DNA of 64,000 bases from a virus (IMGVR_UViG_3300021400_001610:18490-82489); one strand, 5' to 3'. Shown: positions 1 through 23,869, counted from the stretch's first letter. Notes: generated by a model not told the origin, from the letters alone. Numbers and translations: made by a program.

Positions 1-177
1 ATAGAATGTGTCTTTGATTTCAAATTCTTTTCCACTTCCTTTTCTTTCCTCGAAAGCTTCGAAATCATTTAAGATACAATCGAAAGCATAAGGGCATCCA
101 TGACCATTAGACGTGGCACATTTCTTACAAACAGAACTATTTTTTGTGACCTCGATTAAATAATCATATAAATACAT
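1..177 (-). CDS. small Cys-containing hypothetical protein (runs off window start)
   Basis: Manually translated MYLYDYLIEVTKNSSVCKKCATSNGHGCPYAFDC...; RBS GAAAGGGG upstream of ATG at 177. Confidence 0.5.
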   Translation of the reverse strand, partial: MYLYDYLIEVTKNSSVCKKCATSNGHGCPYAFDCILNDFEAFEERKGSGKEFEIKDTFY

Positions 178-200
178 TTTCTTTTCCCCTTTCTTATAAT

Positions 201-380
201 TTAATTACAAATTGCTCTCCACGGTTTATCATCATGATTAATTTCCCAATGACAAGGGGCGGGTCCACTTAATATACAGTAATTTTCAAAATCTCTTAAA
301 GGACAAGTGGCACATGTTCCTTGTTCTTTGCATACTTCTTTAATTATTTCAAGTGCTTTCAAAATTTTTTCTTTTTCCAT
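201..380 (-). CDS. 59-aa Cys-rich hypothetical protein
   Basis: Manually translated MEKEKILKALEIIKEVCKEQGTCATCPLRDFENYC...; RBS GGGAG upstream; below ORF-track cutoff. Confidence 0.6.
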   Translation of the reverse strand: MEKEKILKALEIIKEVCKEQGTCATCPLRDFENYCILSGPAPCHWEINHDDKPWRAICN

Positions 381-423
381 TTCTTTCTCCCTTCTTATTT
401 TTGTCTGTGTTATACTATGAATA

Positions 424-514
424 TGGTGGAGATGATGAGGAGTCGAACCTCACGCACCAATAGGTACTTATTTCCCTGTAAGAGGGGTTGCCGTTATTCT
501 TACTTTCCATCCCC
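424..514 (-). ncRNA. tRNA-like / tmRNA-TLD-like 91-nt RNA with Ala identity elements
   Basis: Acceptor stem GGGGAUG/CAUCUCC with G3.U70, discriminator A, encoded CCA, T-arm UGAGG-UUCGACU-CCUCA; own promoter TTGACA(556-551)-17-TATTAT; no canonical D/anticodon arms. Confidence 0.65.
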
Positions 515-686
515 TTGTTGTATCTATATAATACCATAGTATTATACGATTGTCAACTCCTTTTTATAAAGTTTTAATTTTCTGACAATTATATCGGCCC
601 GGGCGGGCGCCCGCATCGTCTAATAACGATATACGATATGCTCCGATGAAAAGATGGGAGCACCGACTTGGATGCTCCCGATTGGG

Positions 687-1046
687 TTACTCACCCTTTT
701 CACGCATTTCCTTTTTCTTCCTACGGATTTCTGCGTCACGTTCCATTTTCTTTTTCTTTTTCTCGGCGTTGGCTTTTGCCTTTTCTGCCTTTTCTTTCAG
801 TTTCATTTCGTATTCTTCTGCCATCGAGTAACCGTCATAGGGTTCTGTACCCTTGTTTGCTCCTGTGGGAACTTTTACGGTGATGACGATGAAATCCTCA
901 TTGCCCTCGCAACCAACAACGGGAATTGCGATTTCGTTGGACTTAACACGGAGAACTTCTTCATCAGACAGTTTAAACTGTTCCATAATGGACTGAAGAT
1001 AAGTTTCTCTCAACATTTCTCTTTCTACTTTTCTTGATACTGCCAT
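687..1046 (-). CDS. hypothetical protein with C-terminal Lys/Glu coiled coil
   Basis: 119-aa ORF, RBS AAAGGAG, own promoter, terminator hairpin 656-680. Confidence 0.8.
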   Translation of the reverse strand: MAVSRKVEREMLRETYLQSIMEQFKLSDEEVLRVKSNEIAIPVVGCEGNEDFIVITVKVPTGANKGTEPYDGYSMAEEYEMKLKEKAEKAKANAEKKKKKMERDAEIRRKKKEMREKGE

Positions 1047-1371
1047 TGTTAACTCCTTTCGTTCTTTCCTTTATCTTGACTAAAGTATATCACATAATTG
1101 GGGACTTGTCAAGACGAATTTGGGATTTTATGAAATTTTTTTACGAAGAAAATTTGCTTTCTTTCCTTATTTTCTATATATATTATATCATAAAATTTTA
1201 AATTTGTCAATAGATTTTAAGAAATTCAGAAAATTAAAATTATTTTGAATTTTCTGAAAATTCGGCGGCGCCCGGGCGAGTTGGAAATATCATCCAACTC
1301 GACCTGTCCTGTCGATCCATTCACATATTGCCCATACAACGAATGAAAGAATGAGAAGTATAATAGTCATT

Positions 1372-1653
1372 TTATTTCTTTCCTCTCTTTGTCTTTTTTA
1401 CTAAACTTTTATCGTATACTTTGTCAACGTTCCAATGGTCATAATAATCATTGTAGAATTGTTCCTCACCTTTTAGATATGGTTTGTCACACTCTCCGAT
1501 GTTGTAACCATATTCGTCTGCGATTGGTTTAACGTAAGAATCATAATTCTTTGCTGTAATTCCTTTTACCTTTGCGTCTACTTGGGAAGTAGAAACGGCG
1601 AAGATTGCGAAGATAATGATTGCTAATATAATTGTAAAGATTTTCCGTGCCAT
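1372..1653 (-). CDS. small secreted/membrane protein
   Basis: Start moved to MARKIF at 1653 after RBS GAAGGGAG; N-terminal hydrophobic signal-like segment. Confidence 0.7.
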   Translation of the reverse strand: MARKIFTIILAIIIFAIFAVSTSQVDAKVKGITAKNYDSYVKPIADEYGYNIGECDKPYLKGEEQFYNDYYDHWNVDKVYDKSLVKKTKRGKK

Positions 1654-1714
1654 TGTCTCATCTCCCTTCTGTAAGTATATGATACTACAAAAGGATTGAC
1701 TTGTCAACCCCTTT

Positions 1715-1936
1715 TTAATCTTTTCTTAAAATTTTTAATTGATATTCGTTTAACCAATATTTACTATACTCTTCAAAATCTAAAGTATCAGAACGTAAAT
1801 CTCTTGCAATTGCATCTATTAATACAAACTCTAAAGAAGAAATATTTAACGATGTTAAATAGTAAGGGGTGAGACAAAAATCTTTGGAAAAAATTGCGAG
1901 TGTTTCATCTTTTTTTGTTAATTGATAAATAATCAT
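1715..1936 (-). CDS. hypothetical protein
   Basis: 73-aa ORF with RBS AAAGGAG and own promoter. Confidence 0.6.
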   Translation of the reverse strand: MIIYQLTKKDETLAIFSKDFCLTPYYLTSLNISSLEFVLIDAIARDLRSDTLDFEEYSKYWLNEYQLKILRKD

Positions 1937-2061
1937 TGTTTTTCTCCTTTCTCTATCATGTTTATTATACTTTAAAAATAAAGTTCTGTCAACCCCTTTT
2001 AATAAGTTAATTTTTTAACGATCGGCCCGGGCGCGGAGCACGGGAGCATGCTCCCGAACTC

Positions 2062-2727
2062 TTACGCAAAACATTTTTTTCTCATGGGTTTATGTTGACG
2101 CATACAGTGGACAAAGATTTCTTTTTCAATCAATACATCTTCAAGTCCTGTGTGAGATTCGATGAAATCATTATCCCCTGTGATGTATCTATAAAGAATT
2201 TCTGCGGTTTTTCTGACCCTACCATTTTTTGTAAGGTATCCGTTGGTATAACACCATTCCTTATAGTGAACTTGTTTACAAATGGTATCATTTGCCATTT
2301 TCATTGTGTCCCATAATTCAATACCATAGGGGAGGAAAAATCTGTATTTTGATTTTGTGATATAACGCTGTGTTTTAGATGTTGACTTGTAATCGAATCT
2401 TGCGTTGTGTGCGATTGCGACCTTTACATTATATTTCTTACATACATCTGCAAAGATTTTTCTTGCTTCGTAAAGGCTGACAACCTCACGCTCGCCATTT
2501 TTAATCTGCTCGTAGTATTTCGGAATTTTGTCTGCGTAGTATGCTGATTTCATTAATTCTCTCATTCCGAAGAATACTTCACGAATTACGAATGAATACT
2601 TTTCGTATACATTACCCATTTTGTCAATGATGGCGAACCCTAAATCATATACGATGGGGTCATCGAGTCCGTTGGCTGTCTCTGTATCGAATACTACATA
2701 ATACTTTTTACGTCTGTCAATCTTCAT
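2062..2727 (-). CDS. DEDDh 3'-5' exonuclease (DnaQ-like)
   Basis: ExoI VVFDTET, ExoII AHNARFD, ExoIII HTGLED; start moved to MKIDRRKK. Confidence 0.9.
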   Translation of the reverse strand: MKIDRRKKYYVVFDTETANGLDDPIVYDLGFAIIDKMGNVYEKYSFVIREVFFGMRELMKSAYYADKIPKYYEQIKNGEREVVSLYEARKIFADVCKKYNVKVAIAHNARFDYKSTSKTQRYITKSKYRFFLPYGIELWDTMKMANDTICKQVHYKEWCYTNGYLTKNGRVRKTAEILYRYITGDNDFIESHTGLEDVLIEKEIFVHCMRQHKPMRKKCFA

Positions 2728-2880
2728 TTTGTTTTCTCCTTCCGTTTTCTTTCCTTTGAACAATTATATATTACCATATAGGACGCAAGAAGTCAATACC
2801 TTTTTTTAAATTTTTTAAAGACGAAATATTCTGACAATGGGAGCACGGCGCCCGGGCGAAGACGAACAGATGTTCGTCTT

Positions 2881-3000
2881 CTATTTAGTCTTCAAAATGA
2901 AATACATTATTATTAGACCTATGATTGTGCCTACCCCTACTGCCGAAAAAGCTTGTAATGTAGTTAGAGTAGAATCGTGGATGAAATATAGAATAAACAT
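2881..3000 (-). CDS. 39-aa single-TM membrane peptide
   Basis: MFILYFIHDS...GVGTIIGLIIMYFILKTK after RBS AAAGGAG. Confidence 0.55.
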   Translation of the reverse strand: MFILYFIHDSTLTTLQAFSAVGVGTIIGLIIMYFILKTK

Positions 3001-3058
3001 TTTTTCTCCTTTTTTCTTTATTATACTACAAAAGGGTTGACTTGTCAACTCTTTTTTA

Positions 3059-3241
3059 TTATTTTTCTTCTTCATACCATACTTTATCAATCACTAAATT
3101 GTCTATCAACTTTTCGGGATTGTCTAAAATGTAATTCATTACCGATTCTTTATTGCTGGAATCTGTGACTATTTCAAAATCTTCTTTTTCTCCATCACAA
3201 GTTAAGTCAAACTTAATTGTAAATTCGATGTGCTGTATCAT
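3059..3241 (-). CDS. acidic hypothetical protein
   Basis: 60-aa ORF, RBS GAAGGGAG, own promoter. Confidence 0.65.
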   Translation of the reverse strand: MIQHIEFTIKFDLTCDGEKEDFEIVTDSSNKESVMNYILDNPEKLIDNLVIDKVWYEEEK

Positions 3242-3300
3242 TTTTCTATCTCCCTTCTGTGATTATATGTTATCACATTTGATGTCGTTTGTCAAGTCTT

Positions 3301-3465
3301 TTAGCACATTTTATCTTTACCAGTTTCTGTATCTGTAACACAAACTTCTCCATCTACATCTCCATCGGTTAAAGAAATAAACTTTTCTGCGGCTTCTTCA
3401 TAAGAATCAGCGTCAACATACCCACTAATGATAAAACTGCCTGATACAAAGTAAATTTTACTCAT
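3301..3465 (-). CDS. acidic 54-aa hypothetical protein
   Basis: True start MSKIYF at 3465 after RBS GAAGGGAG; the upstream extension in the ORF track crosses promoter and terminator. Confidence 0.65.
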   Translation of the reverse strand: MSKIYFVSGSFIISGYVDADSYEEAAEKFISLTDGDVDGEVCVTDTETGKDKMC

Positions 3466-3604
3466 TTTCTTTTCTCCCTTCTTTATCTTATCTATATTAT
3501 AGCAAATGGATCGACTTTTGTCAACCCTTAAATTAAAAAAAGAATATTCTGAAAATTTACGTCTTCGGCGCCCGGGCCGCGAACGTATGTTCGTGATCGA
3601 GTCT

Positions 3605-3635
3605 AAAAAAAAGAACGGACGTTTTGTCCGTTCTT
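3605..3635 (-). terminator. intrinsic terminator
   Basis: Stem AAGAACGGAC/GTCCGTTCTT plus U-run on minus strand, directly after the 3644 stop. Confidence 0.75.
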
Positions 3636-3643
3636 TTCTATCG

Positions 3644-3973
3644 TCAAGCGAGTGCGTAACCCTTGACCTTACCCTTACCCTTGACCTTGATTTCACTTAC
3701 TACGAGTCCATCAATCTGACGAAGCAACGCACTTGCTTTCTGCACCGAGATTTCAACCTTTTCGGCAACCTCTCCTGCGCTCTGCGGTTCGTGAGTGAGA
3801 ACTTCCTTAATCTTCGCCTTAATCGGCTCGTTAGCGATTGCGGTCTTGGAAGGGGAGTTCTTCCGCTTTGCGTTCTTCTCATCCATCTTGATGATTTCGC
3901 TCTTTGCCATTTCGATGACTTCTGCGTTTACGTTACCGTTGATGATTGCTTCGAACATTTCTCTCTTAGTCAT
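3644..3973 (-). CDS. winged-helix DNA-binding protein, MTKRE family paralogue 1
   Basis: MTKRE N-terminus, ISxQKASAL helix, KVKGKGK wing shared with 4745, 8204, 13356. Confidence 0.85.
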   Translation of the reverse strand: MTKREMFEAIINGNVNAEVIEMAKSEIIKMDEKNAKRKNSPSKTAIANEPIKAKIKEVLTHEPQSAGEVAEKVEISVQKASALLRQIDGLVVSEIKVKGKGKVKGYALA

Positions 3974-4162
3974 TTCGTACCTACTTTCTCGTGAAGGTCA
4001 CGACCCTTTTTAACTACTTGGGAGTTCCTGTCTCCCCTCTCTGTGATTATATATTACCATACTTTATTGAGTTTGTCAATACCTTTTTCAAAATTTTTTA
4101 TTAGTTATTTTTTTCACAAGGCGGCCCGGCAAAAGACGAACATATGTTCGTCATATTTTACC

Positions 4163-4333
4163 CTATACATTTTTGCTGTCATCCAAATTAAAATATTCTC
4201 TGATCCAAAATTCTTTTCCGCACTCGCAACAACGTGCTTTTGCTAAAACTCTAATATAGTCTCCGTAATAATCATATTTTTCTATATAGATTATTTCATA
4301 GTCTTCTGAATTACAATTTTTACATTTTGCCAT
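4163..4333 (-). CDS. 56-aa Zn-ribbon protein
   Basis: Manually translated MAKCKNCNSEDYE...RCCECGKEFW; two CxxC pairs; RBS AAAGGAG. Confidence 0.6.
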   Translation of the reverse strand: MAKCKNCNSEDYEIIYIEKYDYYGDYIRVLAKARCCECGKEFWIREYFNLDDSKNV

Positions 4334-4347
4334 TTTATTTTCTCCTT

Positions 4348-4494
4348 TTAATCTTCTGTCTGTAAATAAACACTATTAGCAATTTCAACTGTTTTAATTG
4401 GAATATAATTTTCTTCAAGTTTGTCATAGACAAATACATTCATATTCATATCATAACTATCTAAAAGTTCGTTAATAAGTTCTCTTACTGTCAT
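4348..4494 (-). CDS. 48-aa hypothetical protein (MTxRELIxEL family)
   Basis: Manually translated MTVRELINELLDSYD...; RBS and promoter; N-terminus similar to 10312-10464. Confidence 0.6.
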   Translation of the reverse strand: MTVRELINELLDSYDMNMNVFVYDKLEENYIPIKTVEIANSVYLQTED

Positions 4495-4744
4495 TTTTTC
4501 TCTCCTTTCTGTGATTTTATTCTATCACATTTTATCTTGTTTGTCAAGACCTTTTTTCAACTTTTTTATTTTGTTTTTTCTCTCCTTTCTTCTTGACAAT
4601 TATATTATAAACGAAAGTCAAGAAAAAGTCAAGAACTTTTTAGGATGTATATTGTATACATGAAGCGGGCGCCCGGGCCACCGTCGGAATATTCTGAAAA
4701 TTTACGGCGAAAAAAAAGAGGAGCAAGTGCTCCCCCCTTTTCTT

Positions 4745-5092
4745 CTATGCTACAGAGTAACCTTTCTGCTTACCCTTACCCTTTACCTTAACTTCTACTG
4801 CGGAAAGCTGACCATCTGTGACCAACTGTCTGCAAAGAGCACTTGCTTTCTGCGTGGAGATTTCCAACTCTCCTGCGATTACACTTGCCACAATCGGCTC
4901 ATTCTTACCGCCGAGGAACTCGACAATCTTTGCCTTAATCGGCTCATTGGCAATCGCTGTCTTTGACGGAGTGTGGGAACGCTTTGCATTTCTTGCGTCC
5001 ATCTTCTCGATTTCCGCCTTTGCGAAGTCTGCGATTTCGATTACATCAACGTTTGCGATTACTGCGTTCAGAAATTCTCTCTTAGTCATCAT
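4745..5092 (-). CDS. winged-helix DNA-binding protein, MTKRE family paralogue 2
   Basis: SKTAIANEPIKAKI, ISTQKASALCRQL, EVKVKGKGKQKGYSV. Confidence 0.85.
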   Translation of the reverse strand: MMTKREFLNAVIANVDVIEIADFAKAEIEKMDARNAKRSHTPSKTAIANEPIKAKIVEFLGGKNEPIVASVIAGELEISTQKASALCRQLVTDGQLSAVEVKVKGKGKQKGYSVA

Positions 5093-5209
5093 TTTGGTTT
5101 CCTTTCTGACCCTTTAGGTGGTTGTCATCCCTTTCCTTTATCTTGACTTTATTATATCACCTTTTCTTTGACTTGTCAAGACTTTTTTTTAGAACTTTTT
5201 TAATTTTTT

Positions 5210-5273
5210 TGGTGGTTTACCGTCACCACCGTTTTATGTTACGGCTTGGGGAGCATCATCTTTACTATCTCCC
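5210..5273 (-). ncRNA. candidate small structured RNA
   Basis: Own promoter (TTGACA 5313-5308, TAATAT); hairpins GGGAG/CUCCC, CCGU/ACGG and GGUGGU/ACCACC (the last two overlap); only a 6-codon ORF. Confidence 0.3.
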
Positions 5274-5460
5274 TTGTTGTATATATATTATCACTTATGA
5301 CCCTATTTGTCAACAACTTTTTGCTATGTATTTTGTATACATGATTTCTTTTACGCTTTAGTGCGGTGAAGCGGCGCCCGGGCCGAGCAAACGTATGTTC
5401 TTTTGTGGAGTAAAAAAATAGGGCAAGACGCGTCCGTCTCGCCCTCGTTCCTATCCACTT

Positions 5461-5592
5461 TCAGAACGTTGCGCCTAATTGCTGTCGCGCCCGCGGTGGA
5501 AGGCTATGGCGCGGTGAGTTGGTACCACTCACTATTCGGCTTACATTTCTGTCATCGCGCCTTGCCATCGGCGCTTCGGTATGAACTTTCAT
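5461..5592 (-). CDS. 43-aa GC-rich small ORF (or structured RNA)
   Basis: RBS AAAGGAG, promoter, MKVHTEAPMARRDD...; terminator hairpin ~5419-5446. Confidence 0.35.
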   Translation of the reverse strand: MKVHTEAPMARRDDRNVSRIVSGTNSPRHSLPPRARQQLGATF

Positions 5593-5636
5593 TTGAGTTA
5601 TCTCCTTTCTGTGATTATATATTATCATATTTGGTA

Positions 5637-5828
5637 TCATTTGTCAATAAGTTTTCTCGTATATATCAAATATTCTTCTGCTGTCATCTCTTTTATTGTG
5701 GCCTTATCATCACAACTATCAAACCAATAATCAATCATATAATTAATAGCGCGATTTTTGTTGATGAAACGCCCAACTATATCTCCATTTGTGTTAATTA
5801 CACAATATAATCTTTTTACTTTTTTCAT
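5637..5828 (-). CDS. hypothetical protein
   Basis: MKKVKRLYCVINTNGDIVGRF...; start could be the GTG at 5834. Confidence 0.6.
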   Translation of the reverse strand: MKKVKRLYCVINTNGDIVGRFINKNRAINYMIDYWFDSCDDKATIKEMTAEEYLIYTRKLIDK

Positions 5829-5900
5829 TTTCACTTGGATTTCCCCCTCTCTGTGATTATATATTATCATATTCGATGTGGTTTGTCAAGTGTTTTTTTA

Positions 5901-6110
5901 TTATTTTCTCATTGCGTCACAGTAATATTTATAAATTTCATCGAAAGTATATTGATAACCGCAATCACAATTGACTACATGATGCATAGCAACGTATTCA
6001 TTGCCTTTATGCGTAAAGAAATCAAAATCTTCTATAGTAGATTCGTAGTCATATCCGCCACACTTGGGACAACCATCAAATTCTTTATAATCTTTAAATT
6101 TAATTTTCAT
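5901..6110 (-). CDS. Zn-ribbon protein
   Basis: CPKC ... CDCG pairs; RBS AAAGGAG; architecture like 4163-4333. Confidence 0.7.
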   Translation of the reverse strand: MKIKFKDYKEFDGCPKCGGYDYESTIEDFDFFTHKGNEYVAMHHVVNCDCGYQYTFDEIYKYYCDAMRK

Positions 6111-6146
6111 CTTTTTATCTCCTTTTCTTTTTGTGATTATATATTA

Positions 6147-6323
6147 TCACATTTCTGCAAGTTTGTCAAGTGCTATTAATAATCTTTTCTTATTTTTATA
6201 AAGTCTATTGTTTGTGCAATACGTACAAGTGCCATGATTTCTGCAAGTATGATCGATTGCCTTTGAACCATAATACTTTTTTCTTTTCTCTTTTCTATGT
6301 TCAATCGCCTTGTCAAGTGCCAT
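6147..6323 (-). CDS. small basic Cys/His phage protein
   Basis: SKAIDHTCRNHGTCTYC motif; start moved to MALDKA after RBS GGGAGG. Confidence 0.7.
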   Translation of the reverse strand: MALDKAIEHRKEKRKKYYGSKAIDHTCRNHGTCTYCTNNRLYKNKKRLLIALDKLAEM

Positions 6324-6454
6324 CTTATTTACCTCCCTTGCAATTATATGATAACATATCACTTCTACTTTGTCAACCCTTTTTTAAATGTTTAAATATT
6401 CTGAAAATTGGCTTCGGCCCGGGCGAAAATGATGCCAAAAGGCATCATTTTTAT

Positions 6455-7090
6455 CTATTCAGGAAGGCAACTTGCTCCAATTCTATCACAACCCATTTCA
6501 ATATATTTTTCCATTTCTTCACGAGTACGAATACCGCCACTTGCCTTAATTTTCGTATCATTATGAATGTTTGCTTTCATAATTTCGATGTCTTTGAATG
6601 ATGCACCGCGAGTTCCAAACCCTGTGGAAGTCTTTACATAGTCTGCGGGAGTATTGTCTACAATCTTTGTGGCGATTGCGATTTCTTCATCAGTAAGATA
6701 ACAAGTTTCAATTATTACTTTCAGAATTACTCTATCATTCATTTTATTAATTCTGTCGTAAATAGTCTCGATTTCTTTTTTAATAAGATGATAGTTACCG
6801 TTTTTCATGTCTCCAATATTGATAACCATATCAATCTCATTTGCCCCATCGAAAACGGCGGATTCGGCTTCTTTAACCTTTGTCATTGTGTTACAATTTC
6901 CAAGAGGAAAACCCACAACTGTGCAAATTTTAAGTGTTGGGAAGAAGTTATAAACGAAGTCTACATAGTGAGAAGGAATACAGACAGAGGCACAACCCTT
7001 TTCTACTGCCTTTTCGCACAGATTCCAAATATCATTATTCGTTGCGGTTGCTTTCAGAAGTGTGTAGTCGATGTGTTCATAAATATTCAT
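6455..7090 (-). CDS. deoC: deoxyribose-phosphate aldolase
   Basis: DYTLLK, VGFPLG, GANEIDMVIN, KVIIET, Schiff-base VKTSTGF, KASGGIRT, RIGAS. Confidence 0.95.
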   Translation of the reverse strand: MNIYEHIDYTLLKATATNNDIWNLCEKAVEKGCASVCIPSHYVDFVYNFFPTLKICTVVGFPLGNCNTMTKVKEAESAVFDGANEIDMVINIGDMKNGNYHLIKKEIETIYDRINKMNDRVILKVIIETCYLTDEEIAIATKIVDNTPADYVKTSTGFGTRGASFKDIEIMKANIHNDTKIKASGGIRTREEMEKYIEMGCDRIGASCLPE

Positions 7091-7224
7091 TGTTGTTTCT
7101 CCTTTCCTTTATCTTGTCTATATTATAACAGAAGTATTTCAATTTGTCAACTATTAAATTGTATTAAAATTGTATTTGTCGGCGGCCCGGGCAAAACAAG
7201 TCGAAAAAAAATAGACCCGAAGGC

Positions 7225-7386
7225 CTATTCATAAGAAGAGATATCTATTAAATTTCCCTCATTATCAAAATTAAAACTAATACCACCGTAACTTGACATA
7301 CTGTCTATTTCTATAGAATTATTGTCTACATATACTATATTAGCCTTAATAGTTTCTAATATTCTTTTTAATTCTTCTTTTGTCAT
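7225..7386 (-). CDS. 53-aa hypothetical protein
   Basis: Manually translated MTKEELKRILETIKANIVYVDNNSIEID...; RBS and promoter present. Confidence 0.6.
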   Translation of the reverse strand: MTKEELKRILETIKANIVYVDNNSIEIDSMSSYGGISFNFDNEGNLIDISSYE

Positions 7387-7580
7387 TGTATTCACCTTTC
7401 CTTTCCTTTATCTTGTCTATATTATAGCAAACATCTTTTATTTTGTCAACCCCCAAATTAAAAGTTTTAATTTTCAGATAATTTTAGTGGCCCGGGCGCC
7501 ACGAACGTATGTTCGCAAATAAGTGAAGCGGTTCACTTTATGTAAACCGCTTCGTATAAGGAAAGGAGGAAGTTAGTTAA

Positions 7581-7838
7581 TTACATAATATGGATTTCAA
7601 ATTGTTCCAACATCGTCATTGCAACTAATCCAACGGTAATTCCTAACATGCAACCGTCTTTGATTTTGTCTGCAACGGGACGTTGAAGAACAAAACATCT
7701 TGTAAAGGAAAGAATGTTGGCGAACAGATAAACGAACTGTCCAATCAAGAAATCTGCCTTTACTACACACTGTGCAGTAATCAGAGTAATCAATACCAAG
7801 TAATTCAATTCTTTCCATACCATCTGAAATTTAGTCAT
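7581..7838 (-). CDS. small multi-TM membrane protein
   Basis: Three hydrophobic segments in 85 aa; terminator hairpin GAAGCGGTT/AACCGCTTC at 7525-7553. Confidence 0.7.
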   Translation of the reverse strand: MTKFQMVWKELNYLVLITLITAQCVVKADFLIGQFVYLFANILSFTRCFVLQRPVADKIKDGCMLGITVGLVAMTMLEQFEIHIM

Positions 7839-7885
7839 TCTCTTTGTTTCCTTCCTTGTTTCTTTCTGATACTATTATAACGCAT

Positions 7886-8026
7886 TTATGCGATGTTGTC
7901 AACCTTTTTTTGAAAATCTTTTAAAAGATTTTCGAGATGAACTTTCTGCATCTTCTCAAAAGCCTGTCTATTCGGAATCAGTGTTGTATATTTCTCTAAT
8001 TCGTTTACGATTTCCTTTTTAGTCAT
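7886..8026 (-). CDS. 46-aa hypothetical protein
   Basis: Manually translated MTKKEIVNELEKYTTLIPNRQAFEKM...; RBS GAGAGG. Confidence 0.55.
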   Translation of the reverse strand: MTKKEIVNELEKYTTLIPNRQAFEKMQKVHLENLLKDFQKKVDNIA

Positions 8027-8203
8027 TTCTTTTTCCTCTCTTTCTGTAATTATATGATAACACACTTTCCCATAAAAGTCAACCCCTTTTTCATATTCAT
8101 AATTTTCTGAAAATTAGTTGCGCCCGGGCGCCTGTCTGAATATTCTGACAATTAATTTCCAAAAAAAAGAAGGGCGATTTGCCCTTCCTTTATTTTCCAA
8201 AAA

Positions 8204-8548
8204 CTAACAGACGCTATATCCCTTCTGTTTGCCCTTGCCCTTAACCTTAACCTCAACGGCAGTCAGTGTACCACCTTCTACCATCTGCCGACAGAGTGCG
8301 GAAGCCTTCTGAACAGAGATTCCGACCTCTGCGCCGATTGCACTTGCCGTGATAGGCTCGTCACAATCCTTGAGGAAGTCTGCAATGGCAACCTTGATAG
8401 GCTCGTTTTCCTGTGCCTTCTTGGACACCGTTGCTCTACGCTTTTCGTTCTTTGCGTCCATCTTTACGATTTCGGATTCTGCGAACTTGATAACTTCGTC
8501 AGTGATGTTGCCTGCGATAACCATTTCCATCATTTCTCTCTTAGTCAT
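8204..8548 (-). CDS. winged-helix DNA-binding protein, MTKRE family paralogue 3
   Basis: Start moved to MTKREMM at 8548; VGISVQKASALCRQM, EVKVKGKGKQKGYSV. Confidence 0.85.
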   Translation of the reverse strand: MTKREMMEMVIAGNITDEVIKFAESEIVKMDAKNEKRRATVSKKAQENEPIKVAIADFLKDCDEPITASAIGAEVGISVQKASALCRQMVEGGTLTAVEVKVKGKGKQKGYSVC

Positions 8549-9105
8549 TTTGTACCTTCTTTCTTGCGTTGGTCGCAACCCTTTTTCATTAGTTTTAGGA
8601 AGTTCCTGTCTTCCTTTTTCCTTTTGTGTCTTTATTATATCAGATTTTCGGAAATCTGTCAAGACCTTTTTTAACTTTTTTTGAAAAACTTTTTATTTTG
8701 GGAGAAGTTTTTCTATTTCCCTTTTCTGTATCTTTATGATAACATATTTTCGGGATTTTGTCAAGGGGAAAATTTCTTTTTTGTTGAGAAAGACGCATCT
8801 TTTTTCCGCTCACGCTCAACATTCTCGGAATAGTTTTTCTTTCTTTCCCCTTGACAATTATATTATAAAGGAATTTTCTAAAAAAGTCAACCCTTTTTAT
8901 GAAAAAATTATAGAAAAATAATTCTGAATTTTGGGAACTTTCAGAAAATTCTGAAAATTTTCGGCGCCCGGTCGATCCGAATTATGGGAAATTATGGGAG
9001 TGGGCGATCGCCCGGGCGCACTGTGCGTCAGAATTTTCTGAAAATTTGCAGAAAAATAAAGGTCCCATTATGACTAATGGGACAATTTTCCAAGAATTTT
9101 GGGAA

Positions 9106-9237
9106 TTACATCAACACTGTGAAAATATTCCAAAACGATAACGGACAACCCTCTAAATTCTTTGAAAGAATTTCGATGTATGAAGCGGTGAACCAAACAC
9201 CAAAAGCGATTAACGGCGTACATAAAATCTTTTTCAT
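9106..9237 (-). CDS. 43-aa hydrophobic peptide
   Basis: Manually translated MKKILCTPLIAFGVWFTASYIEIL...; start overlaps the stop of the upstream ORF. Confidence 0.55.
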   Translation of the reverse strand: MKKILCTPLIAFGVWFTASYIEILSKNLEGCPLSFWNIFTVLM

Positions 9238-9470
9238 ACTAACTGCCACCCCCAAGATTCCTGTGCATCAAGAAAACCCTTGATAGTCCAAATTGCTTTC
9301 TTGATGTCTTCTCTTTCAATAATTTCGCCTGTGTAAATGTTTTCCAAACATTCCGCATCATCGGCGTCCATTGCCGTTGCAATTTCTTTGAGTACGTATT
9401 CGCCGAAAGCGAGCCACGCCCTATCATCCTGTGTGATTGTCATTACGATTTTCTTGTCAAACTGTGCCAT
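9234..9470 (-). CDS. acidic hypothetical protein
   Basis: Start moved to MAQFDKK after RBS AAGGAG. Confidence 0.7.
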   Translation of the reverse strand: MAQFDKKIVMTITQDDRAWLAFGEYVLKEIATAMDADDAECLENIYTGEIIEREDIKKAIWTIKGFLDAQESWGWQLV

Positions 9471-9675
9471 ATCTTTTCTCCTTTCTCTCTCTGTGATTAT
9501 AATATACCACATATCACCTACACTGTCAACCCCTTTTTATAAAAATACTTCGTTAATTAATTCACAAGGCGGCCCGGGCGCTACGAACATATGTTCTCTT
9601 AATAAGGCGAGAACGAACAACCTTTCGTTGTCCGTTCTCTTTATATGTAAGGAGGAAACAAATGTCATTTCGTTT

Positions 9676-10119
9676 TTAGTTAATACCTTTCAAAACTTCC
9701 ATAATCTGACTTTCATCAAAGGCTTCACCCTTCCAATTATTTCTATTCGGTGTTTCATCATCGAACAGAATACCGTTGGGGAAGTTTACTACTTCTTCTT
9801 TCGGTGTACCATATTTTACAATGTGGATTTCATCGAAGTGAACGCTTTTCAGATGTGCTTTGAGCCACTGAATTTTTGTTGTTGTGACCTTTTCATCGAA
9901 TTCGGCGGTGGAATTCTTTGCCAACCAACTTACGATTCCGATTGTATATCCTTTTCTCTGAAGATTGTTGAGAACCTTTGCGAGTGCCGACAGACGCAGG
10001 AGCGGAGCTGCCTGTGCATACGGTGTAGCGTCTTCAGCTTTCAGATAGTCGAGCCATCCATTAACACCGTAGAAGTTTGCGATTGTTCCGTCCATATCGA
10101 AGTAGATTGCCTTGGTCAT
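9676..10119 (-). CDS. HAD-superfamily phosphatase, 5'(3')-deoxyribonucleotidase-like
   Basis: Motif I YFDMDGT, motif IV ILFDD. Confidence 0.8.
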   Translation of the reverse strand: MTKAIYFDMDGTIANFYGVNGWLDYLKAEDATPYAQAAPLLRLSALAKVLNNLQRKGYTIGIVSWLAKNSTAEFDEKVTTTKIQWLKAHLKSVHFDEIHIVKYGTPKEEVVNFPNGILFDDETPNRNNWKGEAFDESQIMEVLKGIN

Positions 10120-10311
10120 TTTGTTTTCCTCTCTTTCCTTTTCTCTATATAGAGTATATCAAAAATTTCTCGATTTGTCAACTATTTTTACCGATTCGGA
10201 AAATGTTTTTTAATTCTAAATATTCTGAAAATTGGCGGGCGCCCGGGCAGAAAGAACGTGTGTTCGTCCATGGCGCCCCGGGCGAAAAAAAAATAAGCCT
10301 TTCGGCTTATT

Positions 10312-10464
10312 TTAAAAGTAAATTACTACTTCATTTTCATTCTGTCTACTTTCTACTACTGAATAAATATCATCGTCTTCTGCGTTTCTTACTCTTGCAT
10401 TTTCGTCAACTTCTCCATTAGCTACCATTGCATTCAGTTCTTCAATCAGTTCTCTAATTGTCAT
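10312..10464 (-). CDS. 50-aa acidic hypothetical protein (MTxRELIxEL family)
   Basis: Manually translated MTIRELIEELNAMVANGEVDENARV...; RBS GAGG and promoter. Confidence 0.6.
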   Translation of the reverse strand: MTIRELIEELNAMVANGEVDENARVRNAEDDDIYSVVESRQNENEVVIYF

Positions 10465-10559
10465 TGTATTTACCTCTTCTTTCCTTATCTTGTCTTTATT
10501 ATATCACAGCTTCGCCAGCTTGTCAACAACTTTTTTTCTCCGGTTCATCCGAAGGAGGC

Positions 10560-11033
10560 TTATGCCTCCTCCGCCATCATCTTCATCATCTGTTTTTCGT
10601 TGATGAAGCTTGCTTTTTCAAACTTAATCTGATAAGCGATTCCATTTACTGTCAGGTCGCCGTCTTCGGTGAACGGTACATTGTCCTTTTCCCATTCCTG
10701 TCCGTTCAGCTCGGTCATCAGCTTTTCGAAAATCTCGCCTTTGTTGTACTTGCTTTCGCTTGCCAGCTCATCGAAGAACTTTTCGGAGCAGAGAACCTTT
10801 GCTCCCATGCTCATCAGCAGAGCTTTCTGACCTTTGTTCGGCTTGAACCGAAGTGCGTACCCAGCTCCACGGCTCGCCTTGTCCAGCTTCAGCAGCTCCG
10901 GCAGAATCTCAGCTGTCACGAGGACGAACCAGATATTTCCAGCAGCTCTGAATCCGAAAATGTAGTTGTGGGTGTAGCTATGACGATTGTAAAATCCTAC
11001 CATTTTTGCTTTGAGTGCGACGTTGGTTGACAT
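10560..11033 (-). CDS. putative PD-(D/E)xK-fold nuclease-like protein A
   Basis: Start moved to MSTNVA after AAAGGAG; NKGEIFE...DGDL...YQIK motif; homologous to 12289-12828. Confidence 0.7.
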   Translation of the reverse strand: MSTNVALKAKMVGFYNRHSYTHNYIFGFRAAGNIWFVLVTAEILPELLKLDKASRGAGYALRFKPNKGQKALLMSMGAKVLCSEKFFDELASESKYNKGEIFEKLMTELNGQEWEKDNVPFTEDGDLTVNGIAYQIKFEKASFINEKQMMKMMAEEA

Positions 11034-11109
11034 AATATGCTCCTTTCCAATTCCTACCAATCTCCCCCTGTCATAGACAGTTTACTACAAATACAAATAT
11101 TCGTCAAAT

Positions 11110-11743
11110 TGCATAGATATACATTGACCGTTGAAATTTCAACGTTTTTAGAACTTTATACATGAATATTCATGCATTATACATTGTATACAAAGTGCAT
11201 ATGCAAAAAACAGTGCATAATATACATGTTTATGCATAAAATCAAACCCGAAAACGTTGAAATTTCAACGTTTTTATGTATGTTCTTAAAAAACAATGAA
11301 TATTCATGGATTTTACCGATTATACATAAAAATAAATTTTCATGCACGCCCGGGCGGAATTGAACCGAAATCGGTTCGATTCATAAATGAATCGAACCGA
11401 ATCCGACTCAGTTAGTTAGTTAGATTGAACTAACTCGGTCCGGCGGTCGCCCTGCGTGCAGTATACTGTATACTGTATACCGCATACTGTATACACGACT
11501 GAATAGTCTGACAATTCTGAAAAGAACGTATGTTCGTGCATAAATATACACTTGTTCGCACCCGCGAACATCCGTTTACTATTCCGATAATTAGTTTATG
11601 CGGAATAGTTCAAGGGTGTGAAGCGGAGAAAACGTTGGAATTTCAACGTTTTCAACTATTCCGATAATTAGTTTTCTCGGAATAGTAAACAAATGTTCGC
11701 GTTTCGGTATGTATATTCATGCATACGAATGCATATCTATGCA
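11110..11743. promoter_or_regulatory. ArgR(ARG)-box-like palindromes TGMAT-N4-ATKCA
   Basis: Cores at 11110, 11163, 11223, 11297, 11537, 11710, 11730; the last two are a tandem pair with 20-bp period. Confidence 0.45.
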
Positions 11744-11895
11744 CGAACAGAACATATGTTCGCGAACAGACCATAAACATATGTTTGTATACTGTATACA
11801 CGGATACTGTATACTGTATACTGTATACACGTCAGAATAGTCTGATAATTGTTAGTTAGACGGAACTAACTCGAGTGTACTGTATACTGTATACA
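11461..11895. repeat. GTATACT heptamer tandem blocks / TGTAT-N5-ATACA palindromes
   Basis: Blocks at 11461-11495, 11786-11829, 11876-11895; the first two continue into a shared GAATAGTCTGA(C/T)AATT. Confidence 0.9.
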
Positions 11896-11916
11896 CAATA
11901 CAATGTAAGTACAATC

Positions 11917-12142
11917 CTTTAGTCTGATAAAGTGGTAACGCGTTAATGCGTTAGTCCTTTATCCCTTTAACGTACTAAAGTATACCAATATGGTATACTT
12001 TAGTACGTTAAACTTCTAAACTTTAGTAGACTAAAGTCTACTGTATTGGTAGACTTTAATGCGTTAAACTTCTGAACTTTAGTGTGGTAAAGTGGACCAC
12101 AGACGTACACTTTATTACGTTAATCCTTTAGTGTAATAAAGT
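11917..12142. repeat. iteron-like array CTTTA-N7-TAA(AG) with perfect 22-bp inverted repeat
   Basis: Units at 11917, 11965, 11998, 12021, 12054, 12077, 12110, 12126; perfect IR 11966-11987 / 11991-12012. Confidence 0.9.
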
Positions 12143-12214
12143 CCCTTGCAAGTATCATGCCAAGAGATATATTTAAGAGTGATTGAAAAAGATATATGAA
12201 TTGCAATTTATGTA

Positions 12215-12243
12215 TTGACGTATCCGGCAATATAGCATATAAT
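12215..12243 (+). promoter_or_regulatory. sigmaA-type promoter
   Basis: TTGACG-17-TATAAT upstream of 12289. Confidence 0.8.
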
Positions 12244-12288
12244 CTATAGTATCAGATAACACATTTGAATTGTAAAGGAGACGAAACA

Positions 12289-12828
12289 ATGACTACTAAC
12301 AGAACTACAATGAATAATGAAATCAAAATGGCTATCCTTGAAAAACTGTTTGCAGTAGAAGCAACTCACACCTATGGATTCGCTATCCGTGACAATGGCA
12401 TGGTTAAGGCGGCAATAGTTGAAAATGCCGATGATGTAATTCCCTTTATAACAGTATGCGAACGTAACTCAAAGTCGCACGGTGGCGTATACGGTGTGCG
12501 GATGTGGAATTCTAATAAAGCATTTGAGATTATCAAAGAGTATGCACGTGAGATTATTACACTTTGCACAGTAGAAGAATTCGAACGGCAGTTCAAAGAA
12601 GCAAAGGAAAATGGTTTCAAAGGCAATCGCGGTGACTTCTTCGAACCTACTTTTGCAAAGGCTACTGGAGCAAAACTGAATACAGTAAGAAACGAAAAAT
12701 GCACAGACTGCGGAGATGTGAACCTGAATGGAGAAGAAATCCAATTAAAACTGTGGAATGCCACATTGACCACCGAACCACAAGTAAATACATTCTATGA
12801 AAGAATGATTGCAAACAAGGCTGAGTAA
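12289..12828 (+). CDS. putative PD-(D/E)xK-fold nuclease-like protein B
   Basis: Start MTTNRT after AAAGGAG; NRGDFFE...CGDV...IQLK motif; terminator AAGGCT/AGCCTT plus T-run follows. Confidence 0.7.
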   Translation: MTTNRTTMNNEIKMAILEKLFAVEATHTYGFAIRDNGMVKAAIVENADDVIPFITVCERNSKSHGGVYGVRMWNSNKAFEIIKEYAREIITLCTVEEFERQFKEAKENGFKGNRGDFFEPTFAKATGAKLNTVRNEKCTDCGDVNLNGEEIQLKLWNATLTTEPQVNTFYERMIANKAE

Positions 12829-13355
12829 GCCTTGTTTTTTTTATGCCGTGAGCCTTTATTCTTTGATTTCCGCGACTTTGATGCCTACATTGAGTATTTA
12901 TACCATTAACGATAGAAAAGTCGCTTATATCGGCGAATACGGCGGGAGCACGGTAGTCTGTTAAATAATTAACAATTATGCTCCCGATGCTCCGATGCTC
13001 CGTTAAAAAATTAACAAACATGCTCCTGTTTTCGGGAAGACGTACCTGTAAATAAATGGAAGCCCTTGAGTTAAATCCCTCTAACTTTTGGGAAAATCTC
13101 CCATGGTATTTTTTACCACCCTCCAATTCTGACAACGAAATTTTTCGTGAAAAATTTAACAAAGGGCAAAAGATTTTTCTCGCCGAAGACAGAATTTTCT
13201 GACAATTCAAAGGCGGGGCGTAGTTTTCGGAATTGCGCGAATTGTCTGACAATTCAGCTCCTGAGCGTGGAAAATAATCTCCACGAAATCAAAATTTCAT
13301 TTACAAAAAGATTCAAATAAAAAAGAGAGCCTCAACCTTCGGCTCTCTTCAATCC

Positions 13356-13712
13356 TTAAACGTAATATGCTCTTCGAATTCCTTTCCCCTTAATTTTAAC
13401 TTCAGTCGCCCGTATACGCCCTTCGCGCACCAAACTTGTACAAATCGCCGTAAAACGCTGTCTCGTAAGCTCCGGCGCCACCTCGACCATTATATCGGCA
13501 ATCGTAAACGGCTGACCGGGATTACTTTGTAGGAGTTCACAAATTCGATCTCCGTAGGCCCTATTCTCCTTATAGAGTTCAGTTTCCTTCGATCTCGCCA
13601 ACGTCGCCGCCGCCTGAGCATTTAACTTTTTCAATTCCTTTTTACATTCTTCAATTAACTCTTCACTAATTTCTCCATGAATTACAGCTTCAAGCCTTTC
13701 TTTCCGTGTCAT
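13356..13712 (-). CDS. winged-helix DNA-binding protein, MTKRE family paralogue 4 (divergent)
   Basis: MTRKERLEAVI, LTRQRFTAICTSLVREGRI, EVKIKGKG. Confidence 0.8.
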   Translation of the reverse strand: MTRKERLEAVIHGEISEELIEECKKELKKLNAQAAATLARSKETELYKENRAYGDRICELLQSNPGQPFTIADIMVEVAPELTRQRFTAICTSLVREGRIRATEVKIKGKGIRRAYYV

Positions 13713-13731
13713 TTATTTTCCTCCATTTAAG

Positions 13732-13995
13732 TTATTCATTGATATAAGAAGCCCGCCTTTTCGTGGCTCTTTTTCTACATTGTATACATTTTCTTTTTGC
13801 GTTGACTTTTTTCGAAGGACACCATGCTGGATGGTCGCATCCATAACACCTGCCCTTCGGTAATCTTCTATATAAAGCTCTCATGTTTGTGTTTTCTCGC
13901 TCCCACGCTTTTAATGCTTCACACTTATAAGCTAATATGCATATTTCATAGCACATAGGACTTGGTTCGACCCCTATCGTTGTGCATTTAATCAT
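13732..13995 (-). CDS. Cys-rich hypothetical protein
   Basis: 87-aa ORF with several CxxC; overlaps the upstream stop. Confidence 0.6.
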   Translation of the reverse strand: MIKCTTIGVEPSPMCYEICILAYKCEALKAWERENTNMRALYRRLPKGRCYGCDHPAWCPSKKVNAKRKCIQCRKRATKRRASYINE

Positions 13996-14239
13996 TTTTA
14001 TTATCCTTTTTATATACGCCCGCGTAACAATACCCTTCCATATCTACGAATGAATGATGGGCTTTACAAATACCTTGTATAGATGTAGTTCTTTCAAAGA
14101 ATTCACAATTTTTACATTTGACGATACTTTCATAAACTTCTATTAATTCATCTATGTCTGCGCGGCGCCAGTCATCTTCTTCTTTATGCTTCCAAAGTAT
14201 TTTTGACTCATCTACTTCAGTTCCAATTTGAATTATCAT
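13988..14239 (-). CDS. Cys-motif hypothetical protein
   Basis: VKCKNCEFF...C...C motif. Confidence 0.65.
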   Translation of the reverse strand: MIIQIGTEVDESKILWKHKEEDDWRRADIDELIEVYESIVKCKNCEFFERTTSIQGICKAHHSFVDMEGYCYAGVYKKDNKND

Positions 14240-14520
14240 ACTTCACCGTCCTTTCTACGCACGCCGTAGGAGCAATAATCTTCATCTTTACAGAACCCGC
14301 CGCCATTTACGTTCCTTATCGCACAATATCTTCCTTTCATAAAATCGCTGTCTATACGCAGATACTTACAATCTTTACATCTAATTACCTCTACAGCATC
14401 TATGGTAGGGGCGCTATCGATGTCATCTTTGTAGACCACTTCGACGTATTCCCAATCACCATTTTTCATTGGTTCGAAGCGCCCGCTTGATTCAAGAGAA
14501 TCTGCATCTATTAATCTCAT
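14236..14520 (-). CDS. MRLIDAD-type phage protein with Cys cluster
   Basis: MRLIDADSL ... APTIDAVEVIRCKDCKY ... YCSYG. Confidence 0.75.
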   Translation of the reverse strand: MRLIDADSLESSGRFEPMKNGDWEYVEVVYKDDIDSAPTIDAVEVIRCKDCKYLRIDSDFMKGRYCAIRNVNGGGFCKDEDYCSYGVRRKDGEV

Positions 14521-14526
14521 TATTCC

Positions 14527-14715
14527 TTACTTCCTGTATATATTAATAATAACTTCTGCTACATTATCTTTAGGTTCAAAATATTTAGCACATTGTTTTC
14601 CGTTTATATTTTTGATGCGATATTCGTTTTCTCCATCGGTTATTGTGAGGATTATTCGGTCTCCGTATATAAGTATCATATCTTCTAACTGCTTAATTAG
14701 TTTTTGTATATTCAT
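14527..14715 (-). CDS. hypothetical protein
   Basis: 62-aa ORF in a tightly packed operon. Confidence 0.6.
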   Translation of the reverse strand: MNIQKLIKQLEDMILIYGDRIILTITDGENEYRIKNINGKQCAKYFEPKDNVAEVIINIYRK

Positions 14716-14718
14716 ACT

Positions 14719-14955
14719 TCACCATCCTTTCATCTTCGCTCCGCAGTTTGGGCAATATTTAAAAGAATATGCTCCACGGTCATATCCGCATTGGTCACAC
14801 TTATATAACATTGACCCCGGAATATGATTTGGCATCCACTGCCCTATATTCGGCTCTAACGCCTTAATTATTTCATCAATTTCATCCACGCTATCCCATG
14901 GAAGATAATCAGTTAAATATCCTTTTACTTTTACCAATGCTTCTTCTTTTGTCAT
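14719..14955 (-). CDS. Zn-ribbon protein (CPNCGAKM type)
   Basis: CDQCG...YCPNCGAKM. Confidence 0.75.
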   Translation of the reverse strand: MTKEEALVKVKGYLTDYLPWDSVDEIDEIIKALEPNIGQWMPNHIPGSMLYKCDQCGYDRGAYSFKYCPNCGAKMKGW

Positions 14956-18177: not shown

Positions 18178-18178
18178 A

Positions 18179-23852: not shown

Positions 23853-23869
23853 TAAACGGAGGATTTATT

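Follow-up and report, generated by a model that had tools for sequence, protein, structure and literature searches.

We analyzed a 64,000-nucleotide stretch of viral DNA (the window), which comprises bases 18490 to 82489 of a single 82,489-bp IMG/VR virus record, IMGVR_UViG_3300021400_001610 (here G000), classed as linear and ~70% complete, and found that 16 junctions between the small gene cassettes of its early region are copies of one composite module. Read along the minus strand, the module begins with an intrinsic terminator and ends with a consensus sigmaA promoter; between them lie a pre-core box (about -95), the GC core GCCCGGGC (about -80), and a slot (about -55 to -65). The pre-core box is of LexA type or double CodY type, and the slot holds a CodY-type box, a Rex-type box, or a phage-specific palindrome. 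Judged against published operators, the match of these boxes to the sites of three host repressors is too exact and too persistent for chance, and we consider the chances about even that at least the LexA and CodY/Rex classes would be bound by host proteins. Positions below are those of the window unless the genome is named.

The core occurs in 15 exact copies in the window (597 to 11348), compared with 0.07 expected from shuffles, and degenerate copies lie near 4124 and 8966. The genome holds 17 copies, all within genome positions 18141-29837; two lie just upstream of the window, and the remaining ~68 kb has none. On the minus strand, every copy stands between a hairpin/T-run on its 5' side and a TTGACA-17-TATAAT promoter on its 3' side, in many cases with an extended -10. 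Terminator-like sites number 36 in window positions 1-13400, versus 8.8 in shuffles; of the 21 promoters in this interval that match at 11/12 positions or better, 20 lie on the minus strand and the other on the plus strand. An earlier note on this DNA had proposed at least 16 spacers with a single minus-strand layout, and the 15 exact window cores together with the degenerate one near 4124, each in the order terminator, core, promoter, bear this out. About 13 further early promoters lack the core. The junctions are as follows.

528-679, minus: junction 1; hairpin 656-679, core 597-604, CodY-like box 576-590 (1 mismatch), promoter from -35 at 556 to -10 at 528
415-537, minus: junction 1 target; transfer-messenger RNA (tmRNA)-like RNA or open reading frame (ORF) driven by the junction 1 promoter
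1182-1277, minus: junction 2; core 1270-1277, exact CodY box 1248-1262 and a weaker one at 1221, promoter 1210 to 1182
1964-2058, minus: junction 3; GGGAGCATGCTCCC hairpin, core 2025-2032, weak Rex-like box GTTAA-N4-TTAAC 2004-2021 (3 mismatches), promoter 1992 to 1964
2765-2881, minus: junction 4; LexA-like box 2863-2876 within hairpin 2858-2881, core 2850-2857, CodY-like box 2825-2839 (3 mismatches), TTGACT promoter near 2796
3496-3633, minus: junction 5; terminator ~3603-3633, LexA-like box 3580-3593, core 3570-3577, CodY-like box 3543-3557, promoter 3524 to 3496
4051-4152, minus: junction 6; exact consensus LexA box CGAACATATGTTCG 4137-4150 in hairpin 4135-4152, degenerate core GCCGGGC near 4124, Rex-like box 4102-4119, promoter 4079 to 4051
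4604-4740, minus: junction 7; terminator, pre-core double CodY-like box 4688-4702, core 4671-4678, TGTATATTGTATACA 4646-4660, promoter 4632 to 4604
5285-5445, minus: junction 8; terminator 5420-5445, degenerate LexA-like box 5388-5401, core 5376-5383, CTTCA..TAAAG element, TGTATTTTGTATACA 5327-5341, promoter 5313 to 5285
6348-6454, minus: junction 9; terminator, core 6417-6424, CodY-like box 6395-6409, promoter 6376 to 6348
7122-7230, minus: junction 10; terminator 7209-7230, core 7185-7192, slot an AT-rich direct repeat without a named box, promoter 7150 to 7122
7421-7553, minus: junction 11; terminator 7525-7553, LexA-like box 7502-7515, core 7490-7497, CodY-like box 7469-7483, promoter 7449 to 7421
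8054-8187, minus: junction 12; terminator 8169-8187, pre-core CodY-like box 8139-8153, core 8122-8129, exact CodY box 8101-8115, promoter 8082 to 8054
8862-9083, minus: junction 13; terminator 9062-9083, exact CodY box 9032-9046 overlapped by a partner, core 9010-9017 with a degenerate second one near 8966, 24-nt double CodY motif at 8936-8959, promoter 8890 to 8862
9501-9640, minus: junction 14; hairpin, LexA-like box 9584-9597, core 9572-9579, Rex-like box TTGTGAATTAATTAACGA 9550-9567, promoter 9529 to 9501
10153-10313, minus: junction 15; terminator 10290-10313, extra CCCGGG at 10277, LexA-like box 10253-10266, core 10241-10248, CodY-like box 10219-10233, promoter 10181 to 10153
11348-11400, minus: last core (11348-11355), preceded by hairpin 11371-11400, on the edge of hub 1

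Relatives were found by one pattern scan and two protein-based scans of IMG/VR, and six genomes (G000 to G005) were taken whole, two of which are complete (136.6 and 115.3 kb). Box positions measured at 168 promoters in these genomes placed the LexA-type box at about -95, the core at about -80, and the TGTAT box at about -55; CodY-type boxes lay near -60, -80, or -100 and Rex-type boxes at -55 to -75. LexA-type centers clustered between -85 and -115, and 3 of 51 fell between +5 and +30, where they touch the promoter core, a distribution that departs from the usual LexA placement over or beside the promoter core or start site, from which the repressor blocks RNA polymerase. The gaps that carry the boxes, upstream of the promoter cores, are the only untranscribed DNA of the array. 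This arrangement would suit insulators, in which, whatever the binder, a dimer just behind a terminator stops read-through polymerase and seals the cassettes apart. Pre-core boxes indeed lie a few to ~25 nt behind the terminator T-run, all boxes are within the terminator-promoter gap, and their near-consensus sequences suggest selection for maximal affinity. The slot boxes, however, lie downstream of the core and close to the next promoter, where a roadblock would add little; junctions 1, 2, 3, 9, and 10 have no pre-core box; and the boxes of hub 2, a gene-poor region listed below, follow no identifiable read-through path. Thus, we regard insulation as very unlikely to be the explanation.

To count boxes, we compared the 14-kb array and hubs with dinucleotide shuffles of the same DNA, and used the remaining 68 kb of the genome as a comparison; the reference operators were published Firmicutes and clostridial consensus sites. 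LexA-type boxes (CGAAC-N4-GTTCG with at most 1 mismatch) numbered 13 versus 0.28 in shuffles, with none in the other 68 kb, and the box of junction 6 is the exact consensus. Across the six genomes, 71 LexA-type boxes gave the consensus CGAACATAcGTTCG, and flanks outside the 14 bp carry zero information. This consensus equals that of Firmicutes LexA, the Cheo box, a 14-bp palindrome with an RNRY center (PMC2248561). CodY-type boxes with at most 2 mismatches numbered 16 versus 0.45, with 3 in the other 68 kb, and those named in the earlier note (576, 3543, 6395, 7469, and 8101) are all present. Within 1 mismatch of the CodY motif AATTTTCWGAAAATT there are 11 genome sites (3 exact and 8 with one mismatch), none of them outside the array and hubs. 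A typical CodY operator is a 24-nt site in which two 15-nt motifs overlap by 6 nt, an arrangement that supports cooperative binding (PMC10415144). Correspondingly, a partner motif (at most 5 mismatches) was found at exactly 9 nt in 22 of 39 boxes across the six genomes; other offsets from 5 to 15 gave 0 to 7, and the null gave a mean of 3.8 and a maximum of 10 in 2000 simulations.

Rex-type boxes were less prominent in this window. The form TTGTGAA-N4-TTCACAA at up to 3 mismatches gave a weak enrichment (8 versus 2.0), and TTGTKAA-N4-TTMACAA at up to 2 mismatches a modest one (7 versus 0.85, mostly at 2 mismatches); the K/M-degenerate and clostridial forms outperformed the TTGTGAA-type consensus alone. 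Among the three Rex-like boxes put forward previously, the one at 9550 is good, that at 4102 has 2 to 3 mismatches, and that at 2004 has 3. The class is far better developed elsewhere in the lineage: G002 has 11 versus 0.35, 3 of them exact, and 165 distinct boxes from relatives yield the consensus TTGTTAAWWWWTTAACAA, which equals the clostridial Rex consensus (TTGTTAA-N4-TTAACAA form; PMC5367854). The TGTAT-N5-ATACA class numbered 6 versus 0.03, including the boxes at 4646 and 5327 that had been pointed out before. ArgR/AhrC boxes, which usually come in pairs, were rejected: the TNTGAATWWWWATTCANW 18-bp form and the Bacillus variant gave 3 versus 2.1 and 1 versus 1.7 in shuffles, and the hub motif CATGAATATTCATG, considered as an ARG box, lacks ARG-box spacing and has no 4-nt center. 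Enrichment over shuffled DNA was thus found for LexA-, CodY-, and TGTAT-type boxes, was modest for Rex-type boxes, and was absent for ARG-type boxes.

The named boxes also emerged when no operator was specified. An unbiased count of 5-mer dyads in the six related early regions ranked CGAAC-N4-GTTCG first (35 exact versus 0.1) and recovered the CodY-type, Rex-type, TGTATAC, CTTTA/TAAAG, GTTAG-N6-CTAAC, and core palindromes, indicating that the boxes were not cherry-picked. A negative control, Geobacillus virus E3 (141 kb, 30% GC), contained 1 LexA-like and 2 CodY-like boxes and 0 cores. For the remaining palindromes, we considered TnrA (which requires N7), the E. coli-type SOS box, NrdR, and CtsR, and none fits.

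The earlier note also saw boxes pile up in the two gene-poor hubs that follow the array. LexA-, CodY-, and Rex-like boxes and TGTATAC units do occur there, whereas ARG-like boxes are not enriched. Hub 2, which is convergent and promoter-poor, nonetheless holds two CodY-type and three Rex-type boxes.

11034-12264, no strand: hub 1; gene-poor repeats with LexA-like boxes at 11523 and 11749 plus half-sites, TGTATAC repeats over 11786-11902, CodY-like boxes at 11502 and 11836 (3 mismatches), and AACGTTGAAATTTCAACGTT palindromes
11965-12132, no strand: hub 1 tandem repeats; 56-bp units built on CTTTA..TAAAG
12829-13355, no strand: hub 2; convergent intergenic DNA without a strong promoter, CodY-like boxes at 13193 and 13240, Rex-like boxes at 12958, 13000, and 13145

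CTTTA-N6/7-TAAAG units of the 56-bp hub repeats (11917-12142) are the same as the slot element found right after the core in many G004 and G005 junctions, and a unit of this type also lies at 5350-5372; at least one phage-specific site is therefore common to hub and junctions. A second gene-poor region, at genome 15700-18300 (window -2790 to -190), closes the far end of the array. It contains abutting LexA-type boxes at 17876 and 17890 (centers 14 bp apart), two more cores, and CodY-like boxes, and the abutting pair is also seen in G002, G003, and G004.

The modules are real, occur on at least 24 related contigs, and mark a region of cassette reordering, duplication, gain, and loss. The composite of a LexA box, 3-12 nt, and GCCCGGGC is common to at least 24 related IMG/VR contigs, and the box consensus is unchanged even where a marker protein has fallen to 58% identity between the phages. 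The early array, 8 to 9 kb long in the two complete genomes, contains 14 of 15 and 15 of 16 of their LexA-type boxes and every core. Cassette order and copy number vary in G001 to G005, with cassettes rearranged, duplicated, gained, and lost relative to this phage, and for 13 of the 29 early ORFs tested, none of the five relatives has a homologue. The slot of most relatives is Rex-type instead of CodY-type, and the CodY-type slot marks this window's sub-lineage. In front of one 221-amino-acid gene, the slot is of CodY type in three genomes but of Rex type in G002 and of CTTTA/TAAAG type in G004. Comparison of the relatives thus shows that the putative operator positions have been refilled during evolution from a small repertoire, and the plug-in slot imagined earlier survives this comparison: the scaffold is the same, the slots differ, and the same gene sits behind different boxes.

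Such shuffling raises the alternative that the junctions are mainly recombination modules of the promoter-early stem-loop (PeSL) type known from T4-like phages (PMC2839356, PMC4122927), with boxes and core kept as homology patches for cassette swaps and having no protein-binding role of their own. The differences in cassette order, copy number, and content between the six genomes would be expected from it, as would chimeric spacers such as that at G001 4795, whose slot is that of window junction 9 and whose promoter is that of junction 1. In addition, 20 of 58 conserved-block ends lay within 60 bp of a core versus 17.5% expected (p = 0.0014), a modest association that is significant at 30 to 60 bp only and is confounded by gene boundaries. 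Homology patches, however, need neither palindromy nor identity to a host operator consensus, the box consensus has held over the at least 24 contigs while its flanks carry no information, and boxes also occur in hub 2, away from cassette junctions. A role in recombination alone therefore strikes us as highly improbable.

[quoted passage not shown] We propose that the LexA-, CodY-, and Rex-type boxes would be bound by the host's own LexA, CodY, and Rex, with one of three effects. Bound regulators might adjust the strong early promoters from their upstream position, which would tie early transcription to the state of the host; they might be titrated off host regulons as phage copy number rises; or they might back up the terminators as a roadblock. 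Given binding, the first two effects appear about equally probable and the third clearly less so. Generic throttling or titration fits better than cassette-by-cassette tuning, because the boxes lie upstream, are near-consensus, occupy untranscribed gaps and a promoter-free hub, and do not track gene identity. The idea that each cassette is tuned separately, also raised in the earlier note, is correspondingly weakened. In its fullest form, the proposal would have a lineage of large ruminant-gut phages carry maximal-affinity, exchangeable operators for three host global repressors, so that the replicating genome soaks these up and opens the SOS, amino-acid, and fermentation regulons without a dedicated takeover protein, and sub-lineages swap CodY for Rex boxes to suit their hosts; taken as a whole, this seems rather improbable.

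Several observations weigh against binding by the host regulators. Boxes at -55 to -115, almost never over the promoter core, are unlike the usual repression sites of LexA, CodY, and Rex, and their fixed geometry may reflect descent and not selection, given that the spacers are copies of each other. Orphan LexA half-sites are enriched 3- to 4-fold in the array and hubs, and some LexA-type boxes abut with 14 bp between centers; both are unusual for LexA. Only three of ~7 non-core palindrome families match nameable host sites, and the slot classes TGTATAC and CTTTA-N6/7-TAAAG match none and recur in the phage's own repeat hub. The three-consensus match carries a look-elsewhere cost, because ~8 palindrome families were available to match. 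Finally, box type does not go with gene identity, and the phage itself encodes proteins that could be credible rival binders.

These are an array-encoded family of ~110-amino-acid paralogues, present in 3 to 5 copies per genome, whose AlphaFold model is a winged helix (predicted local distance difference test score [pLDDT] of 87).

3644-3973, minus: winged-helix paralogue of 109 amino acids, MarR/TrmB-like, candidate phage-encoded binder
4745-5092, minus: winged-helix paralogue of 115 amino acids
8204-8533, minus: winged-helix paralogue of 109 amino acids
13356-13712, minus: divergent winged-helix paralogue of 118 amino acids with recognition helix LTRQRFTAI, the first gene beyond hub 2

Foldseek matched PadR, SmtB, and MarR folds with high probability and weak E-values, a profile search reached MJ223 at an E-value of 4e-4, and some of 3225 metagenomic relatives carry MarR_2 or TrmB. 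The divergent paralogue was found beyond the w10560 orthologue in G001 (13406-13053), G002 (41064 versus 39470), G003 (40621 versus 39904), and G005 (17141 versus 15379), that is, in four of the five relatives. The boxes might accordingly be bound by phage-encoded regulators, these paralogues or another early protein, and serve as an autoregulatory or early-shutoff operator array resembling stoperators or SPBRE; likeness to host operators would then reflect convergence or mimicry, in which the phage protein competes with LexA, CodY, and Rex at host sites. The SPBRE/MrpR system offers a precedent (PMC10516654), phage binders are required in any case for several slot classes and for the hub repeats, and the enriched half-sites and abutting boxes would fit as well. 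A recognition helix that is nearly identical across the main paralogue group (ISTQKASAL), however, cannot account for three different box classes. In addition, three independent box classes agree with three host consensus sites, even in the 9-nt spacing of the CodY double motif, and the similarity of the paralogue to the CodY winged helix is not significant (E-value of 0.13). Four phage-specific palindrome families already offer plausible targets for the paralogues, and the GC core and other palindromes are more likely served by phage proteins. We consider a phage-encoded binder for the host-type boxes possible, if doubtful. The LexA_DNA_bind, HTH_CodY, Rex N-terminal, and HTH_3 domains were not found above the Pfam cut-off in G000 to G005, which include the two complete genomes; the sole sub-threshold match in the LexA, CodY, and Rex scans was in G003 (11.8 bits, E-value of 0.02).

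Hub 1 is flanked by two divergently oriented genes whose products are distant homologues (24% identity), at 10560-11033 (minus) and 12265-12828 (plus). The former, of 157 amino acids, is present in all six genomes; its confident model (pLDDT 90, predicted template modeling score 0.84) matched no solved fold (Foldseek E-value above 0.1; best VIA-align Z 3.2), and the plus-strand homologue had no fold match by Foldseek or VIA-align either. These searches gave no match that would bear on an earlier suggestion of a PD-(D/E)xK fold.

Core-less early promoters are listed below; the positions are those of the promoters.

1084-1112, minus: core-less early promoter, TTGACAAGTC type
1679-1707, minus: core-less early promoter with the TTGACAAGTCAA palindrome over the -35
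3020-3048, minus: core-less early promoter with the TTGACAAGTCAA palindrome over the -35
4519-4547, minus: core-less early promoter
5151-5179, minus: core-less early promoter with the TTGACAAGTCAA palindrome over the -35
7874-7902, minus: core-less early promoter
8634-8662, minus: core-less early promoter
8736-8764, minus: core-less early promoter
10498-10526, minus: core-less early promoter

The palindrome TTGACAAGTCAA (TTGAC-NN-GTCAA) lies over the -35 of several of these (1679-1707, 3020-3048, 5151-5179, and 1084-1112) and is possibly a separate operator class, placed where a repressor would block RNA polymerase. A further motif, GGGAGCA(T/C) / (G/A)TGCTCCC, is repeated in spacers and hub 2 (656-679, 2035-2058, 2838-2848, and 12945-13020) and in relatives, and is sometimes the perfect 14-bp palindrome GGGAGCATGCTCCC.

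The lineage is probably an uncultured, virulent phage infecting ruminant-gut Firmicutes. Megablast of window positions 1-16000 against 50,697 phage records gave no match, and the closest cultured relative of the terminase is that of Geobacillus virus E3 (42% identical). A look-up of sequencing runs found near-identical DNA in sheep, goat, and bovine gut metagenomes; the runs were ruminant gut metagenomes, with no RNA run among those listed, and a genome-contig scan with a 436-amino-acid marker protein turned up no relative. Neither tyrosine (PF00589) nor serine (PF00239) recombinases were detected in Pfam scans of G000 and the complete relatives G002 and G003, which is why we consider the phage probably virulent. 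The first 11 kb of the window hold small minus-strand genes, followed by the two hubs and then by late and replication genes. The early region (1-11.4 kb plus ~0.8 kb upstream) is hyperplastic, with ~29 small genes in mini-cassettes. Searches of ten early proteins against Pfam and PHROG returned little beyond the DeoC and HAD-like matches below and PHROGs of unknown function; an atlas look-up assigned the DeoC-like gene no more finely than "Bacillota/Bacteroidota/viruses."

6455-7090, minus: DeoC/LacD-family aldolase gene (Pfam E-value of 2e-14), kept in several relatives, behind junction 10
9676-10119, minus: HAD/5'-nucleotidase-like gene (weak matches), kept in several relatives and duplicated in G003, behind junction 15

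A tmRNA-like RNA element lies at 424-514 (minus), directly behind the junction 1 promoter. It scored 20.4 bits against the Rfam tmRNA model, below the gathering score of 47 (E-value of 8e-5); Rfam gave sub-threshold matches only, and ARAGORN called neither a tRNA nor a tmRNA. No other piece of the array is as well conserved as the stretch 422-604, which is 94% identical in G001. A giant ORF of 3557 amino acids (30704-41377, plus) that closes the late block presumably encodes a tail or tape-measure-type protein.

If host LexA, CodY, and Rex do bind, sensors of DNA damage, nutrient status, and redox state would be wired into one modular, evolvable junction, and we know of no earlier phage that wires several host physiological sensors into one junction. 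The array would also be a concrete, testable case of a viral genome acting as a transcription-factor sponge, and an effect on host regulons would matter for rumen ecology, since the lineage is widespread in gut metagenomes of sheep, goats, and cattle. Independently of binding, regulatory sites, and not genes alone, are shuffled here as plug-in parts.

Host binding would extend two single-regulator cases, phi29/Spo0A and GIL01/LexA. The virulent Bacillus phages phi29 and Nf carry several host Spo0A sites at early promoters (PMC2731898). They resemble the present phage as lytic Firmicutes phages with sites for a host global regulator, through which their development is coupled to host physiology. 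In phi29, however, the sites are those of a single regulator, they overlap or adjoin promoter cores and origins, and experiments have demonstrated both binding and repression, whereas here three regulator-type consensus sites, predicted from sequence, lie upstream at -55 to -115 in a repeated, exchangeable module. In GIL01, a Bacillus thuringiensis tectivirus, host LexA acts with phage gp7 and gp6 (PMC6182141). Both phages have Firmicutes-type LexA boxes in regulatory regions, and GIL01 co-opts host LexA. GIL01, in contrast, is a temperate phage whose few boxes lie over promoters and which has a small co-factor along with a LexA homologue of its own; the phages described here were negative in integrase/resolvase scans, carry 11 to 16 LexA-type boxes per genome off promoter cores, and have no LexA homologue at the Pfam cut-off.

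Multi-copy operators of a phage-encoded repressor are known from mycobacteriophage stoperators. The SPBRE sites of SPbeta, with MrpR, are another example (PMC10516654). These systems share with the array many copies of a short conserved site in phage intergenic spacers, but they have one site type, a known phage protein, and a temperate lifestyle, whereas the array has several site types, three of which equal host consensus sites, and its putative binders are not linked to any box class. A literature search for CodY boxes in phages found nothing relevant. Compared with the 24-nt CodY operators of Bacillota (PMC10415144), the phage boxes share the 15-nt AATTTTCWGAAAATT and, in 22 of 39, the second motif overlapping it by 6 nt; host operators, however, are usually degenerate and lie over promoters or inside genes, whereas the phage boxes are near-consensus at about -60, -80, and -100. 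The closest architectural parallel is provided by the PeSL cassettes, which likewise repeat composites of a terminator and a strong early promoter through a hyperplastic region of small genes, with junctions that fall at insertions, deletions, replacements, and reorderings between related phages. PeSLs, between which recombination yields mini-circles, belong to unrelated phages of Gram-negative hosts and carry neither operator boxes nor a GC core. Whether or not host regulators bind, the array represents a Gram-positive counterpart of the T4 PeSL cassette system.

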